Below, one piece after another: positions 34,358 to 36,936 of a stretch of 64,000 nt of DNA; position 1 is the stretch's first letter, and each line of letters opens with the position of its first letter. Made by a program: the position numbers and the translations under genes. Source of the stretch: Escherichia coli (GTDB lineage: Bacteria; Pseudomonadota; Gammaproteobacteria; Enterobacterales; Enterobacteriaceae); assembly GCF_003334765.1 (NCBI RefSeq), contig NZ_QOWT01000012.1, one strand, 5' to 3'. Under the pieces are notes generated by a model. That model saw only the letters and a program-made list of their open reading frames with translations, made no database searches and was not told the DNA's origin.

Positions 34358-34858
34358 TTAGAGTGGTTGTTTAAGTTCGGTTAAAACCATATCTATGGTG
34401 TATATAATAATAAGTACACCACTAATCGGGATGCTCATATAGATATATCCCATTTGCCAGCCTAAAGCGGGCGAGGTCTGACCTGAATCGAATGTATCCA
34501 TCGTTAATAGCCCACCACCATATACCATAATGATGGTTGCGAAGATAATAACGATAATCTGAATACACAAAAATAAATGACGTCGGGCTTTTCCTTTCAG
34601 CATCATAGGTAGCAGGTCAATCGCCAGATGCCGGTTTTGCCCTGCGGTGTATGCCCCACCAAAAAGTCCAAGACAAATAAAGAGCAAACGGCTGAGTTCA
34701 TCTGTAAAAATACTGGGACTAGTAAATATAAATCGTGCAGCCACCTGCCACGTCACACATGCCACGATGATCGCCAAAATGGTAATGTTCAATGCTGCAA
34801 GCAGAGCATTAATAGATCTAATTATATTTCGCATAGTGATTAACCTTTGCAATATCAT
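34358..34858 (-). CDS. TRAP transporter small permease (DctQ family)
   Basis: 166-aa ORF with four hydrophobic segments; start ATG overlaps the flavoprotein stop (ATGA); an alternative start at 34834 is possible. Confidence 0.78.
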   Translation of the reverse strand: MILQRLITMRNIIRSINALLAALNITILAIIVACVTWQVAARFIFTSPSIFTDELSRLLFICLGLFGGAYTAGQNRHLAIDLLPMMLKGKARRHLFLCIQIIVIIFATIIMVYGGGLLTMDTFDSGQTSPALGWQMGYIYMSIPISGVLIIIYTIDMVLTELKQPL

Positions 34859-36936
34859 TCATCCTGTGGCTGGTAAATTGTCCCATTAAGAAAACCAGGC
34901 CAGTTTTTTTCAAACCAAATACCTCGGATAATAGGAAACTCACGAACAGGTGTTTCTCTGACGTGAAAGATACCGTTGCAATAATGAATAAGTAGTTTAT
35001 CTTTTTTATCCTCAGTACGCTCTGAACGAAAGCGCCAGGCATCACAAAAACCATTTCGTGTTTGCGGAATAGAATTTCCATCCCTGTCGAGAATAATACG
35101 TGCTCCCCGACTACCACCACCTGCGTCAATATAATGCGTTAATTGCGTTAATACGGCGGCAGAAGTCAGTGCCATATGCCGCCACATAAACAGCTCGGCA
35201 ACTTCACCCACATGTTTGATAGCCAATCCATGCCGTTGGACAAATTCGCTCAATAGCAGGGCATCGCGAGTGGCGCGTCGGACTTTATCGGCATGGCAAA
35301 TAAATCCCGCATGGTCAGACATTCGTGCCTGAATTTTTTCTCTCACAACCGACAACGGCATCCCGGTCCCGTTATCGTGCGCCTGAGTAATGATCTCTCT
35401 TATAGAAGCCAGTGTAGGAGCTACCAGCTGTGCTATATCTCCATCAATATTCCGCTTTTGCGTGCAACCAATAAAACGTGCCAGACGAACAGCAAAAACC
35501 TGCCCGGCATTCAATGCTGCACCACCAGGGCGAGTGACGCCGTGTGTGCCAGCAACTTCCCCCACGGCGAAACAGCCGGGCAGGGAGGTTTGTCCCCAGA
35601 TATCCACTTCAATGCCGCCATTCATATGCTGATTATTCATGGCAAACTGCAAAGGCTGTGTGGTGAGATCGTAACCGTGCATCTTATACAGCGAGATAGA
35701 CAGCGGATTCATTCGTTGCAGCCGTTCGATGGGCGATGGTGCCAGAGCGTCGTTATTTTCCAGATACGCGCGAACGTCGTCGTCCAGTCGATCTAATGAG
35801 AACGGCAGGTCACCCGGCACCGCTTCAGGATTGCGATTGAAATCCATAAATACCTGACGCCCTGATTGCTGCTCTTGCGCTACTGCCATATCTAACAAGC
35901 TGGAGCCAAAATCCATCACCCGAGTGGCGTGGAACGGCCACTGATAGCCTTTACGGAAAATGTTTGAAGCCAGCTCCTGGGTGGTGCGATAGTAATCCGC
36001 GAGGAAGTTATACTCGTTACCCTCAGCATCCACGGAATAGATATACGGGATCACCTGTACATAGGTACCGGATAAATTCCACGGAAACGTGCTACGCGGC
36101 GTGCCTATACCAAACTGGCTTTCGGTCAGATTGGTTAGCGTCAGGCCTTCCTCCAGCGCCAGCCCCAGCGAGCCAAAACATTTGTGTGGGTACACACTGT
36201 CGCGATAAAGCTCGCCAGGCCCTCCTGTTGCCAGTACCACATTGGGCGCAGTCACAATTGCCAGCCCCCAAGGGTTATGGGCGCGATGACCGGTCGCGAG
36301 GATTGCCCCCGCAACACGGTCTTCGCCGTTTTCGTCACGCTGATGCAGCAGTTTAATCACTGTTGCACTGGTCAACACTGGAATGGCGAGGCGCTGTACT
36401 TCTTCCAACAGCACTTTCACCATTAACCTTGAGGTACGCGGCCCACACGAGGTTGCACGCCCGGCTTCGTCATGGTCGGTTTGATAACGAAGAATCGCGC
36501 CATAGCGATCTTCCGGTAATTCCAGACCAAGATATTGCAACCCGCCAAGAGTGTGCAGAGAACCTACCGCTTCGACATAAGCGGTGTCGTGATCCATCGC
36601 CCCACCGCTCGCCAGTGCCTCTGCCAGTTTGGTGAAGTTGTCGCCGTTGCCCGCGGTAGCGGCGGTAAACAGTGTCTGTTTATCGGAACCAGAACATGCC
36701 GACGTCCCCATATATAACCCGGCGGTGGCGATCAGCACATTTTGCTGGCGGCGTTTAAGTTCCACAGCTGCACGCAGCCCGGCTGCACCACTGCCGACTA
36801 CCAGGGCATCTGTTTGCCAGAGTGGGTAATCAACACCGTCTACCGTGACAACCCATGCGGGCTCTGCCTGTGCAAAACCCTTTGGGAAAGTAACGTGCGT
36901 CAGCGCATCAAGGATGGTGTCATCAAGCTGACTCAT
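34855..36936 (-). CDS. FAD-dependent oxidoreductase, fumarate-reductase/succinate-dehydrogenase flavoprotein-like
   Basis: 693-aa ORF; dinucleotide-binding motif VVGSGAAGLRAA about 45 residues from the N-terminus and SdhA/FrdA/NadB-like segment GCFAVGEVAGTHGVTRPGGAALNAGQVFA; start overlaps the CoA-transferase stop (ATGA). Confidence 0.78.
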   Translation of the reverse strand: MSQLDDTILDALTHVTFPKGFAQAEPAWVVTVDGVDYPLWQTDALVVGSGAAGLRAAVELKRRQQNVLIATAGLYMGTSACSGSDKQTLFTAATAGNGDNFTKLAEALASGGAMDHDTAYVEAVGSLHTLGGLQYLGLELPEDRYGAILRYQTDHDEAGRATSCGPRTSRLMVKVLLEEVQRLAIPVLTSATVIKLLHQRDENGEDRVAGAILATGHRAHNPWGLAIVTAPNVVLATGGPGELYRDSVYPHKCFGSLGLALEEGLTLTNLTESQFGIGTPRSTFPWNLSGTYVQVIPYIYSVDAEGNEYNFLADYYRTTQELASNIFRKGYQWPFHATRVMDFGSSLLDMAVAQEQQSGRQVFMDFNRNPEAVPGDLPFSLDRLDDDVRAYLENNDALAPSPIERLQRMNPLSISLYKMHGYDLTTQPLQFAMNNQHMNGGIEVDIWGQTSLPGCFAVGEVAGTHGVTRPGGAALNAGQVFAVRLARFIGCTQKRNIDGDIAQLVAPTLASIREIITQAHDNGTGMPLSVVREKIQARMSDHAGFICHADKVRRATRDALLLSEFVQRHGLAIKHVGEVAELFMWRHMALTSAAVLTQLTHYIDAGGGSRGARIILDRDGNSIPQTRNGFCDAWRFRSERTEDKKDKLLIHYCNGIFHVRETPVREFPIIRGIWFEKNWPGFLNGTIYQPQDE

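Follow-up and report, generated by a model that had tools for sequence, protein, structure and literature searches.

What does a flavoprotein of the fumarate reductase/succinate dehydrogenase family do in an operon with CoA enzymes? The question is raised by a 693-aa protein encoded in the 64,000-nucleotide stretch of Escherichia coli DNA analysed here (the window). The preliminary description of this DNA had presented the protein as unusually long, probably soluble and acting on a C=C bond, and had called its pairing with a CoA-transferase and a hydratase unusual, as related flavoproteins usually act on free acids.

Searching the K-12 region against the window with blastn revealed that homology ends at 31931 and restarts at 41371, which delimits an accessory island of 9.44 kb that separates rplI from ytfB. 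Of 5426 complete E. coli genomes, 1448 (~27%) carry it in full. Its counterpart in K-12 consists of 1.08 kb carrying yjfZ, plus a ytfA pseudogene that is a 3' remnant of the island TetR gene. Every open reading frame between rplI and ytfB could be assigned to one of the genes below.

31900..31926: strong hairpin of 12 pairs with T runs on both sides, between the convergent rplI and dctP; probably a bidirectional terminator
31932..41370: accessory island, 9.44 kb
31990..32961, minus strand: TRAP solute-binding protein DctP
33014..34315, minus strand: TRAP large permease DctM
34358..34858, minus strand: TRAP small permease DctQ (longest open reading frame; the RefSeq start lies 24 nt further downstream)
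34855..36936, minus strand: flavoprotein, 693 aa, ATG start, WP_000080339.1, FrdA/SdhA/NadB fold, stand-alone
36933..38474, minus strand: family-I acyl-CoA:acetate/3-ketoacid CoA-transferase, YdiF type (2ahu, E 1e-113)
38484..39266, minus strand: short-chain enoyl-CoA hydratase/dehydratase (5zai, E 4e-40)
39270..40112, minus strand: xylose-isomerase-like TIM barrel, 'sugar phosphate isomerase/epimerase' (3qc0/3ju2, E 1e-84)
40122..40913, minus strand: SDR of the NCBIfam PRK12745 type (417 bits, cut-off 250); the RefSeq start is ATG 40913, and the longest open reading frame reaches TTG 40955
40982..41003: perfect 8-bp inverted repeat ATCAACCA-N6-TGGTTGAT in the SDR/TetR intergenic region
41102..41773, plus strand: divergent TetR/AcrR-family regulator (RefSeq start 24 nt further in)

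The best solved relative of the hydratase is a 3-hydroxypropionyl-CoA dehydratase, and the TIM barrel is a close relative of the uncharacterised S. meliloti protein SMc04130. The inverted repeat, which was found by a terminator-like scan and by eye while a dedicated repeat search of the promoter region returned none, is a candidate TetR operator. Matches of DctP to TRAP binding proteins of known structure ranged from E 1e-66 to 1e-71 and included 4N15 (Bamb_6123), whose type binds D-glucuronate (PMC7660916). This homology, at roughly half identity in alignments read by eye, suggests a hexuronate-type ligand. The Salmonella STM3169 TRAP system (PMC7660916) is a different locus without linked enzymes and was set aside.

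The flavoprotein gene lies in one operon with the CoA-transferase and enoyl-CoA hydratase genes, as had been proposed, and shows 4-bp overlaps on either side, with the stop of the CoA-transferase gene and with the start of the longest DctQ reading frame. Also as described earlier, no iron-sulfur or cytochrome partner is encoded between rplI and ytfB, nor is a membrane anchor. The island holds no ETF, OYE-like or other electron donor/acceptor gene. PADLOC returned no anti-phage defence match for five island proteins, and no Rfam family reached its gathering score in 31000-43000. The real frdABCD operon is located ~45 kb away on the same chromosome.

RefSeq names the protein 'FAD-dependent oxidoreductase'. 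This annotation, together with end-to-end homologs of 650-700 aa and a low dN/dS, establishes the gene as real and conserved. The dN/dS ratio was 0.049 in comparison with a divergent E. coli allele and 0.097 with E. albertii, so that the gene is under strong purifying selection (0.05-0.10). Orthologs across the enterobacteria are ~690 aa long, and the plus-strand frame across 34855..36936 is full of stops. A frameshift fusion of two reading frames, which might have produced the C-terminal part, is ruled out by full-length homologs in hundreds of species and by the continuous fold. A few database products of 973-1078 aa (P0002, P0034 and P0086) join the CoA-transferase to the flavoprotein; they look like cases in which the stop was lost at the 4-bp overlap.

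We then turned to the fold. Pfam FAD_binding_2 (PF00890) matched residues 43-475 (E 8.4e-28), which places the protein in this superfamily, and was the only domain detected; the same search returned no OYE-like, FMN_bind or haem domain, so that the domain set of the multidomain NADH:enoate reductases K. pneumoniae FRD and V. harveyi ARD (OYE-like plus FMN_bind) is not present. The best Foldseek matches of the AlphaFold model (pLDDT 91.4, pTM 0.93) were FrdA/SdhA (E 1e-31, target-normalised TM 0.79-0.81, ~665 aligned columns), while hhalign against E. coli FrdA gave a probability of 99.4 over 527 columns, reaching FrdA residue 568. Model and profile alignment show the four-domain architecture (FAD, capping, helical and C-terminal domains) of the complex-II flavoprotein subunit and L-aspartate oxidase, the helical domain assigning the protein to the SdhA/FrdA/NadB clade. 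Fcc3-type enzymes are not known to have an SdhA/NadB-type C-terminal helical domain, which sets the flavoprotein family apart from them. The parts of the protein map as follows.

36766..36801, minus strand: residues 46-57, VVGSGAAGLRAA, dinucleotide (FAD) GxGxxA/G motif
36673..36690, minus strand: residues 83-88, GSDKQT, family-specific invariant loop at the site of the SdhA/FrdA covalent-FAD histidine
35656..36111, minus strand: residues 276-427, capping domain, remodelled; its boundaries are alignment-based estimates
35491..35577, minus strand: residues 454-482, GCFAVGEVAGTHGVTRPGGAALNAGQVFA, second FAD-domain signature with E460 and R469
34858..35490, minus strand: residues 483-693, helical domain and small C-terminal beta domain, homologous to the FrdA/SdhA/NadB C-terminal domains

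Both motifs, the first ~45 residues in, are where they had been reported, and by eye the N-terminus carries neither a hydrophobic nor a twin-arginine signal. The reported ~200 residues past the signature are also there (211 follow), but they are not an extension or an added module: structure prediction and the alignment through FrdA residue 568 resolve them into the ordinary helical and C-terminal domains. The Pfam model for the FrdA/SdhA/NadB C-terminal domain was not detected in residues 483-693. 'Unusually long' likewise needs tempering, since 693 aa is just ~90 residues beyond E. coli FrdA (602 aa). We estimate from the alignment and model that this excess would comprise an N-terminal beta-hairpin of ~40 residues, a capping domain larger by ~30 and a slightly longer C-terminus; the hairpin and larger capping domain have no counterpart in FrdA/SdhA.

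The FAD-binding motifs are intact: G48, G50 and A52 are invariant across the family, and the GxGxxG, ATGG and GE..G.HG..R.GG.. motifs are common to FrdA/SdhA. The histidine of the covalent 8-alpha-N3-histidyl-FAD bond is missing, since FrdA H44 falls in a gap and residues 70-100 contain no histidine. The FAD is therefore predicted to be non-covalent, as in NadB, which is likewise stand-alone and soluble; FrdA/SdhA differ in having the covalent-FAD histidine, the FrdB/SdhB iron-sulfur partner and a membrane anchor. On the flavin side, H437 (codon 35626-35628) aligns with FrdA H355 and NadB H351, and R469 with FrdA R390 and NadB R386. The two residues, which correspond to the Fcc3 pair H504/R544, are invariant in 75 homologs and would clamp the substrate carboxylate over the flavin.

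The capping domain gave a different picture. With motif definitions taken from 10.1101/2022.01.20.477176, and on a low-confidence sequence alignment of this domain, neither the second carboxylate binders of FrdA (the hinge histidine H232, and T244) nor its proton path (E245, R248 and R287) was found conserved: H232 falls at G276/I277, T244 at Q294, E245 at V295 and R287 at S345, while R248 falls in a gap. NadB H244 aligns with a glycine. No equivalent of NadB R290 was found, which we read from FrdA R287 aligning with serine, the NadB capping domain being unaligned. From the classical fumarate-reductase catalytic set, the FAD-domain pair H437/R469 thus appears to be all that is retained. The capping-domain half of the site appears to be swapped for a different set of invariant residues, namely W286, N287, S289, G290, Y292, Q294, P297 and K329, and further along G330, Y331, W333, P334, S345, S346, D349 and R405. 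Active-site residues are the same in 75 species-level homologs, at loci with and without CoA genes alike. Alignment to characterised FAD_binding_2 enzymes thus supports the flavin site, but not most of the catalytic residues of fumarate, urocanate and acrylate reductases or aspartate oxidase. Every characterised fumarate, urocanate, methacrylate or acrylate reductase has the proton-donor arginine, as does NadB. Since it is missing here by alignment, classical C=C chemistry is not guaranteed.

Homologs of the flavoprotein occur in at least 597 species and form at least 422 clusters at 50% identity with E below 1e-30. They constitute a large, very uniform and uncharacterised subfamily of the SdhA/FrdA/NadB type. 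Their hosts are gut, soil, marine and plant-associated bacteria, many of them strict anaerobes from gut and sediment. Names in AFDB50 and the protein collection are all generic, some reading 'succinate dehydrogenase flavoprotein subunit', and a literature search by protein accession, flanking gene names and gene-content keywords returned nothing on the island or the family. All NCBIfam scores fell far below the curated cut-offs: 126.5 bits against 718 for TfrA (NF004900), with no TfrB-like gene nearby, 100.7 against 452.75 for the NadB equivalog (TIGR00551), 80.7 against 567 for SdhA/FrdA (TIGR01812) and 44.3 against 854 for PRK09231. Among solved structures, the best profile match was NadB (1chu, E 2e-29), which is ~150 residues shorter and belongs to NAD synthesis rather than to a sugar-acid/CoA context.

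Partners of the family vary by lineage and link it to sugar-acid and short-chain CoA metabolism; its genes are located in carbohydrate and sugar-acid operons. An SDR is encoded at 32 of 80 loci and a TIM barrel at 14, and no Fe-S subunit family was among the recurrent neighbours at these 80 loci. OYE-like reading frames are present in 18 of 35 distant loci; in six cases the distance to the flavoprotein gene is 10 bp or less. One distant family member, P0150, is an OYE::family fusion without an FMN_bind domain, and its gene is flanked by an AP_endonuc_2 TIM barrel and an SDR. Partners in the closer relatives also comprise the CoA-transferase/hydratase pair, sugar kinases and aldolases. KdgK-like kinases, Eda-like aldolases and a class-I aldolase were found directly downstream, and in alpha-proteobacteria a KdgK/IolC-like kinase gene begins at or inside the flavoprotein stop. 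A Rhizobium operon adds a glucose-type binding protein, GMC oxidoreductases and an aldehyde dehydrogenase. Since alpha-proteobacterial operons have neither SDR nor TIM barrel, the triad of SDR, TIM barrel and flavoprotein is not universal. CoA-transferase/hydratase linkage also occurs in Rhizobium, other alpha-proteobacteria, a beta-proteobacterium, a Desulfobacterales MAG and a Clostridia MAG; the 10-kb flanks under-count it in alpha-proteobacteria, which we corrected with an annotated Rhizobium plasmid.

Our best guess is that the flavoprotein serves a hexuronate-type pathway as a carboxylate-directed C=C oxidoreductase. It would bind a carboxylate-bearing, sugar-derived acid and move hydride between flavin N5 and the carbon beta to the carboxylate, (de)saturating a C=C bond conjugated to that carboxylate. 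The proton donor/acceptor would be a non-classical residue, with K329, Y331 and D349 as candidates. The SDR would carry out alcohol/ketone redox and the TIM barrel an elimination, hydration or isomerisation next to the carbonyl, so that the three enzymes may form an 'oxidise - eliminate - reduce' sequence. Known soluble enoate reductases linked to NADH or to cytochromes (Shewanella Fcc3, K. pneumoniae FRD, V. harveyi ARD and the urocanate and methacrylate reductases) likewise act on a C=C next to a carboxylate. In these soluble superfamily reductases the carboxylate-binding motif is kept, a capping-domain motif sets specificity and an OYE-like domain oxidises NADH (10.1101/2022.01.20.477176). 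They differ from the flavoprotein family in keeping the proton-donor arginine (Fcc3 R402) and most of motif III. The OYE-like proteins fused or adjacent to the family in many genomes are probably NAD(P)H-oxidising electron donors as well, which favours the reductive direction.

In E. coli, the TRAP system of the island would import a hexuronate-like acid, and the translationally coupled CoA-transferase and short-chain enoyl-CoA hydratase may provide a CoA-dependent branch for (de)hydration, in which an unsaturated or short-chain acid is made or consumed; the flavoprotein itself would not act on the thioester. A TetR repressor bound to the palindrome would silence the operon as long as no inducer is present. 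The earlier proposal of a soluble enzyme acting on a C=C bond survives in its first half, as the protein is a soluble, cytoplasmic and partner-less superfamily member; enoate-reductase-type activity is plausible and no more, because most catalytic residues of the characterised reductases and NadB are missing. Against this scheme, a hexuronate to KDG route has no obvious need for a flavin step. Taken as a whole, an uncharacterised FrdA/NadB-fold, sugar-acid C=C oxidoreductase working with its island partners is the best explanation, which we hold tentatively, as somewhat less likely than not.

It is also possible, although we would not expect it, that the family is an unrecognised FrdA/NadB-fold class with its own GSDKQT, WNxSG, KGYxWP and SSxxD apparatus and no catalytic arginine. 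It would then perform one specific step, shared by many phyla, in an undescribed hexose/hexuronate route that runs partly on CoA thioesters and feeds a KDG-type kinase/aldolase. The acyl-CoA deoxyribonate pathway of Klebsiella michiganensis (PMC6365646) was set aside as a different cluster, with a CoA synthetase, a hydroxyacyl-CoA dehydrogenase and a thiolase.

Could the flavoprotein instead work on a CoA thioester, taking the place of an acyl-CoA dehydrogenase or an enoyl-CoA reductase in a cycle that resembles those of beta-oxidation or carnitine? The CoA-transferase would activate the acid, the flavoprotein (de)saturate C2-C3, the hydratase (de)hydrate and the SDR interconvert 3-hydroxy and 3-oxo forms. 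Gene order and translational coupling join the flavoprotein to the CoA-transferase, the island covers every activity of a beta-oxidation turn but thiolase, and the family is associated with a CoA-transferase/hydratase pair not only in E. coli but also in Rhizobium, a beta-proteobacterium, Desulfobacterales and Clostridia. The E. coli cai operon also encodes a CoA-transferase, an enoyl-CoA hydratase and a flavoprotein (CaiB, CaiD and CaiA). A further operon analogy is the Anaerostipes OxcT-EcdH-AcaD branch from 3-oxopropionate to propionate (PMC8355322). The operon logic of the two is similar, with a YdiF-type CoA-transferase, a short-chain hydratase and a flavoprotein oxidoreductase on a sugar/cyclitol route, but their flavoprotein is an acyl-CoA dehydrogenase with ETF, whereas that of the island is unrelated, FrdA-like and has a site that looks carboxylate-directed. 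The carboxylate-clamping His/Arg pair is kept, and at L011 and L069, two loci of the family, genuine acyl-CoA dehydrogenases are encoded besides the flavoprotein (with ETF in L011), so that it is no replacement there. No SdhA/FrdA/NadB clade member is known to use a thioester. Because the same active site occurs at many loci without CoA genes nearby, and SDR, TIM-barrel and OYE-like partners recur in sugar-acid contexts, a thioester substrate is disfavoured and we consider it unlikely. The pairing with CoA enzymes is nevertheless a recurrent one across lineages.

About as doubtful is an oxidative, NadB-like role, in which a 2-amino-, 2-hydroxy- or 3-hydroxy sugar acid would be converted to a KDG- or DKG-like keto acid for the adjacent kinase and aldolase, with electrons passing to O2, quinone or fumarate. 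The profile match to NadB, the stand-alone character without a covalent-FAD histidine, the alpha-proteobacterial kinase gene starting at or within the flavoprotein stop and the lack of an electron donor gene in the E. coli island all point this way. However, NadB H244 and R290 are not conserved, OYE fusion and adjacency suggest NAD(P)H-driven reduction, and many host species are strict anaerobes.

A flavoenzyme without a net redox role, either a flavin-dependent hydratase/isomerase or a structural or regulatory partner, would fit the loss of the classical proton-transfer residues and the absence of an electron partner gene from the island; strict conservation of the FAD motifs and the flavin-proximal His/Arg pair, and the fusion, in one lineage, to an OYE domain that oxidises NAD(P)H, make it very unlikely. 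Finally, the protein might be no more than an additional soluble fumarate reductase, succinate dehydrogenase or L-aspartate oxidase, as the top NCBIfam, Pfam and PDB matches (all TfrA, NadB, SdhA or FrdA) and some homolog labels would have it. This is highly improbable given the low NCBIfam scores and the absence of five of seven substrate and proton-path residues, on which we reject the classical fumarate reductase and aspartate oxidase identities, and given the real frdABCD operon on the same chromosome.

If the preferred reading of a carboxylate-directed oxidoreductase is true, the complex II flavoprotein and aspartate oxidase share their well-known fold with a sister family that is large and uniform and whose active site is unlike that of every characterised member. 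Should the family instead be an unrecognised class, roughly one E. coli strain in four would possess a sugar-acid pathway that is undescribed and has been lost from K-12. The island offers a tractable entry point, with E. coli genetics, a compact TetR-controlled operon and a binding protein that can be screened for its ligand. Work on it may fill a gap in maps of sugar-acid catabolism and widen the known specificity of flavin enoate oxidoreductases, enzymes that attract interest both as electron sinks of anaerobes and for biocatalysis.

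The flavoprotein gene lies within an accessory island between rplI and ytfB. The 10.6-kb stretch around it is 100% identical to the chromosome of E. coli strain ML35 and of others. The features that concern us are as follows.

31900-31926: strong hairpin separating dctP from the convergent rplI
31932-41370 (9.44 kb): island between rplI and ytfB; minus-strand order SDR, xylose-isomerase-like TIM barrel, enoyl-CoA hydratase, family-I CoA-transferase, flavoprotein, DctQ, DctM, DctP
34855..36936, minus strand: flavoprotein ORF, ATG start, 693 aa (RefSeq WP_000080339.1, 'FAD-dependent oxidoreductase')
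40982-41003: palindrome ATCAACCA-N6-TGGTTGAT with perfect 8-bp arms and a 6-nt spacer, in the divergent promoter region
41102-41773, plus strand: TetR-family gene, divergent from the island's minus-strand genes

The plus-strand frame at 34855..36936 is not open and is full of stops. Orthologs of 689-698 aa are found in Escherichia, Klebsiella oxytoca/grimontii (79% identity), Salmonella (77%) and Citrobacter. An exhaustive profile-free search returned at least 422 homolog clusters (50% identity, E < 1e-30), and when one genome was scanned for each species the family was detected in at least 597 of them. Comparison with a divergent E. coli allele (dS 0.39) gave a dN/dS of 0.049, and comparison with E. 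albertii 0.097. The full-length relatives, the species spread and the low dN/dS exclude a frameshift or sequencing artefact. A frameshift fusion with a separate ORF, raised in the preliminary description, was also looked for; the majority of homologs measure 640-700 aa and align to their last residues, which argues against it.

The two E. coli alleles (window 34855-36936 and 10001-12079 of locus L004) share 96.5% amino-acid identity, and their dS seems far above the usual within-species divergence of core genes. Further clusters at approximately 93% and 88% identity have thousands of members in the protein collection. It seems that the island was acquired on more than one occasion or that it persists as several old lineages of alleles. 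There is a 4-bp overlap between the CoA-transferase stop and the flavoprotein start, and another between the flavoprotein stop and the start of the longest DctQ ORF. Because the first overlap is an ATGA (36933-36936), one indel or stop loss would join the CoA-transferase and flavoprotein genes, and some E. coli assemblies encode such fusion products (PF01144 + PF00890; P0002, 1078 aa; P0034, 973 aa; P0086, 1043 aa), whether as sequencing errors or as real variants.

The entire island is present in 1448 of 5426 complete E. coli genomes. K-12 carries yjfZ (DUF2686) in its place (2112-3193 of K-12 locus L085), homology returns at window position 41371, and the ytfA pseudogene of K-12 preserves the 3' end of the island TetR gene, so K-12 bears a deletion or replacement scar of the operon. 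G+C is 40-45% in the TRAP genes (31990-34858) and 40% in the TetR gene, against 50-55% in the five enzyme genes and 51.6% in the window. This contrast suggests a mosaic with parts of different origins. The palindrome is a candidate TetR operator; no Rfam families were present around the island. As first described, no iron-sulfur or cytochrome gene accompanies the flavoprotein in the island; it has no anchor gene either. The longest SDR ORF begins at TTG 40955, while ATG 40913 is the start given by RefSeq and the one favoured when homologs are aligned at the N-terminus; RefSeq starts of TetR, DctQ and the hydratase lie 6-24 nt inside the longest ORFs. A 188-aa ORF with a TTG start (31402-31968, minus strand), antisense to rplI/rpsR and without RefSeq annotation, is almost certainly spurious.

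We found both motifs quoted in the preliminary description, at residues 46-57 and 454-482, the second being followed by 211 residues. The only significant Pfam domain was FAD_binding_2 (residues 43-475, E 8e-28). An AlphaFold model built with 47 diverse homologs (pLDDT 91.4, pTM 0.93) was compared with the PDB by Foldseek, which ranked complex-II flavoprotein subunits on top (E. coli FrdA 5vpn_A, E 1e-31, TM 0.79-0.81 on target, approximately 665 alignment columns), followed by NadB and APS/PAPS reductase alpha subunits. With hhalign, the family profile matched E. coli FrdA with a probability of 99.4 over 527 columns, extending to FrdA residue 568 of 602. Since both matches run through the C-terminal part of FrdA, the approximately 210 residues that had been described as a C-terminal extension are the ordinary helical and C-terminal domains of the clade, with no added module; they are too divergent for Pfam to recognize. 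We estimate from the model and alignments that the excess of approximately 90 residues over FrdA would come from an N-terminal beta hairpin of approximately 40 residues, an enlarged capping domain and a small lengthening of the C-terminus.

The flavoprotein belongs to the FAD_binding_2 superfamily and, by structure, to the SdhA/FrdA/NadB clade. The defining tests of complex-II subunits, NadB, TfrA and multidomain NADH:enoate reductases nevertheless placed it outside each of these groups, and it scored far below every curated NCBIfam cut-off (TfrA, 126 versus 718; NadB, 101 versus 453; SdhA/FrdA, 81 versus 567). No characterised family member was found in NCBIfam models, homolog names or the full-text literature; structural and sequence homologs carry generic names such as 'FAD-binding protein' and 'Oxidoreductase' (AFDB50).

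Alignment to characterised enzymes, the check proposed at the outset, was performed with profiles of NadB and FrdA. The prediction of FAD binding held, while most of the classical catalytic residues were missing. Both alignments retain the flavin-side carboxylate clamp, H437 (FrdA H355/NadB H351) and R469 (FrdA R390/NadB R386). FrdA H44, the histidine that binds FAD covalently, has a gap opposite it, and residues 70-100 contain no histidine, the region being occupied by an invariant GSDKQT loop. In the capping domain, where the alignment is of low confidence, the hinge histidine (FrdA H232, NadB H244) lies opposite either G276 or I277, according to which alignment is used, and FrdA T244, E245 and R248 opposite Q294, V295 and a gap. 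FrdA R287, the arginine that donates the proton, is aligned, likewise with low confidence, to S345, which belongs to the invariant motif GSSL(I/L)D where the equivalent helix starts. If motifs I-III are named as in Fcc3 and the reductases related to it (10.1101/2022.01.20.477176), the family has two of the three motif-I residues and lacks motifs II and III.

In place of these residues the family has a uniform site of its own. Y151, T153, D154, G165, P166, T168, S169, W286, N287, S289, G290, Y292, Q294, P297, K329, G330, Y331, W333, P334, S345, S346, D349, R405, N476 and R610 are identical across 75 species-level homologs (36-97% identity), seven loci with CoA genes among them. Judged from these alignments, classical fumarate or aspartate chemistry cannot be assumed, and the entire family very probably acts on one kind of substrate.

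We then searched 80 family loci, one genome per species, with the island proteins, clustered all neighbouring ORFs and annotated the cluster representatives. The commonest partner found with the island proteins was a PRK12745-type SDR (32 of 80 loci, close and distant relatives alike); TIM-barrel ORFs occurred near family genes in 14 loci. Enterobacterial paralog clusters from Pseudescherichia, Mangrovibacter and Phytobacter (L008, L009, L010, L017) and from Brenneria (L006) have a TetR gene and the order SDR-(Gfo/Idh/MocA)-TIM-MFS-flavoprotein, with MFS instead of TRAP, no CoA genes nearby and a flavoprotein 57-59% identical to that of E. coli. Between Brenneria and the island, SDR and TIM barrel are 74% and 71% identical, the flavoprotein only 59%.

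OYE-like ORFs were present in 18 of 35 distant loci and, in six, lay no more than 10 bp from the flavoprotein gene. In the metagenomic protein P0150, OYE and flavoprotein are naturally fused, and the genes flanking it encode an AP_endonuc_2 TIM barrel and an SDR. Phycisphaerae and related phyla have an operon of OYE/GltD fusion-SDR-Eda-like aldolase-BNR_4 protein-flavoprotein-PfkB kinase. Five Phycisphaerae MAG loci (L053, L055, L061, L067 and L081, around 4000-14500) share this operon, including an MtnA-like isomerase, an 883-aa OYE/GltD-type fusion and a 512-aa BNR_4-domain protein without NCBIfam match; it looks like a separate undescribed sugar-acid pathway. In two beta-proteobacterial loci (L011 13904-15427; L013 12959-14491), a protein of approximately 510 aa with a C-terminal Peptidase_C92 domain (YaeF/YiiX permuted papain-like amidase) adjoins the flavoprotein gene.

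Coupling to CoA enzymes, noted in the preliminary description, proved real and recurrent among closer relatives, although it is not universal and is one of several conserved associations. An annotated alpha-proteobacterial Rhizobium plasmid carries a single-strand operon of CoA-transferase-hydratase-aldehyde dehydrogenase-ABC transporter-GMC-GMC-Gfo/Idh/MocA-flavoprotein-sugar kinase-class-I aldolase, an order found again in many loci. With 10-kb flanks, the hydratase or aldehyde dehydrogenase falls exactly at the flank edge in Rhizobium-type loci, so CoA linkage is undercounted. A beta-proteobacterial locus reads CoA-transferase-hydratase-TRAP-MaoC-acyl-CoA dehydrogenase-EtfBA-TIM-flavoprotein; in a Desulfobacterales locus two acyl-CoA dehydrogenases flank the flavoprotein gene; and a Clostridia locus reads flavoprotein-CoA-transferase-hydratase-SDR-CoA-transferase, beside a GH38-like hydrolase and hydroxyacid dehydrogenases. 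All conserved associations of the family fall within carbohydrate or sugar-acid catabolism.

The partner proteins give hints about the substrate. The island DctP matched the solved TRAP binding proteins 4ovr, 4x8r, 4n8y and 4n15 (E 1e-66 to 1e-71), and visual inspection of the alignments shows both ligand-binding arginines and the asparagine to be kept. We take 4ovr, 4x8r and 4n8y to be structures holding hexuronates. 4N15 (Bamb_6123) has served as a modelling template for, and is grouped with, D-glucuronate-binding proteins (PMC7660916). The binding protein of the Rhizobium operon matched 4r2b (E 2e-165), 5dvf and 2b3b, and is of the glucose-binding type. The closest match of the island hydratase was 3-hydroxypropionyl-CoA dehydratase (5zai, E 4e-40), with both catalytic glutamates present by eye, and the CoA-transferase is YdiF-like (2ahu, E 1e-113). 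The TIM barrel (3qc0/3ju2, SMc04130) and SDR (4da9, 4one) matched only structural-genomics entries with generic deposited names.

From the fold, FAD motifs, kept clamp, lost catalytic residues, uniform site and gene associations we infer, tentatively and at somewhat less than even probability, a carboxylate-directed C=C oxidoreductase working with an SDR or Gfo enzyme, a TIM barrel, TRAP uptake and a CoA branch. A carboxylate-bearing sugar-derived acid would be held over the flavin and hydride would move between N5 and the beta carbon, making the flavoprotein an oxidoreductase that acts on the C=C bond of an enoate-like intermediate, with a proton donor other than the classical arginine. The pathway might oxidize (SDR or Gfo), eliminate or isomerize (TIM barrel) and then reduce (flavoprotein). 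That OYE-like proteins are fused to the flavoprotein or encoded beside it speaks for reduction, on the model of K. pneumoniae FRD and V. harveyi ARD, in which the OYE-like domain oxidizes NADH (10.1101/2022.01.20.477176). For E. coli, the TRAP system would take up a hexuronate-like acid, and the CoA-transferase and hydratase could form a CoA-dependent (de)hydration branch, to which the cai system is analogous in logic. Such a branch would also resemble the OxcT-EcdH branch of Anaerostipes (PMC8355322).

The recurrent CoA genes could instead indicate a thioester-specific enzyme in place of an acyl-CoA dehydrogenase; we consider this unlikely, as the active site is identical in loci without CoA genes and true acyl-CoA dehydrogenases co-occur with the flavoprotein. 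An oxidative role like that of NadB, supplying the adjacent kinase with a keto acid, appears similarly improbable. A non-redox flavoenzyme is a very unlikely reading, and a spare fumarate reductase or aspartate oxidase, on a chromosome whose true frdABCD operon lies approximately 45 kb from the island, is hardly credible.

The fold and cofactor are known and the gene was already annotated; what sets the protein apart is a visibly different active site and pathway, both as yet unassigned. The 'extension' is ordinary, but the family is large, uniform, uncharacterised, present in the E. coli pan-genome and directly testable.
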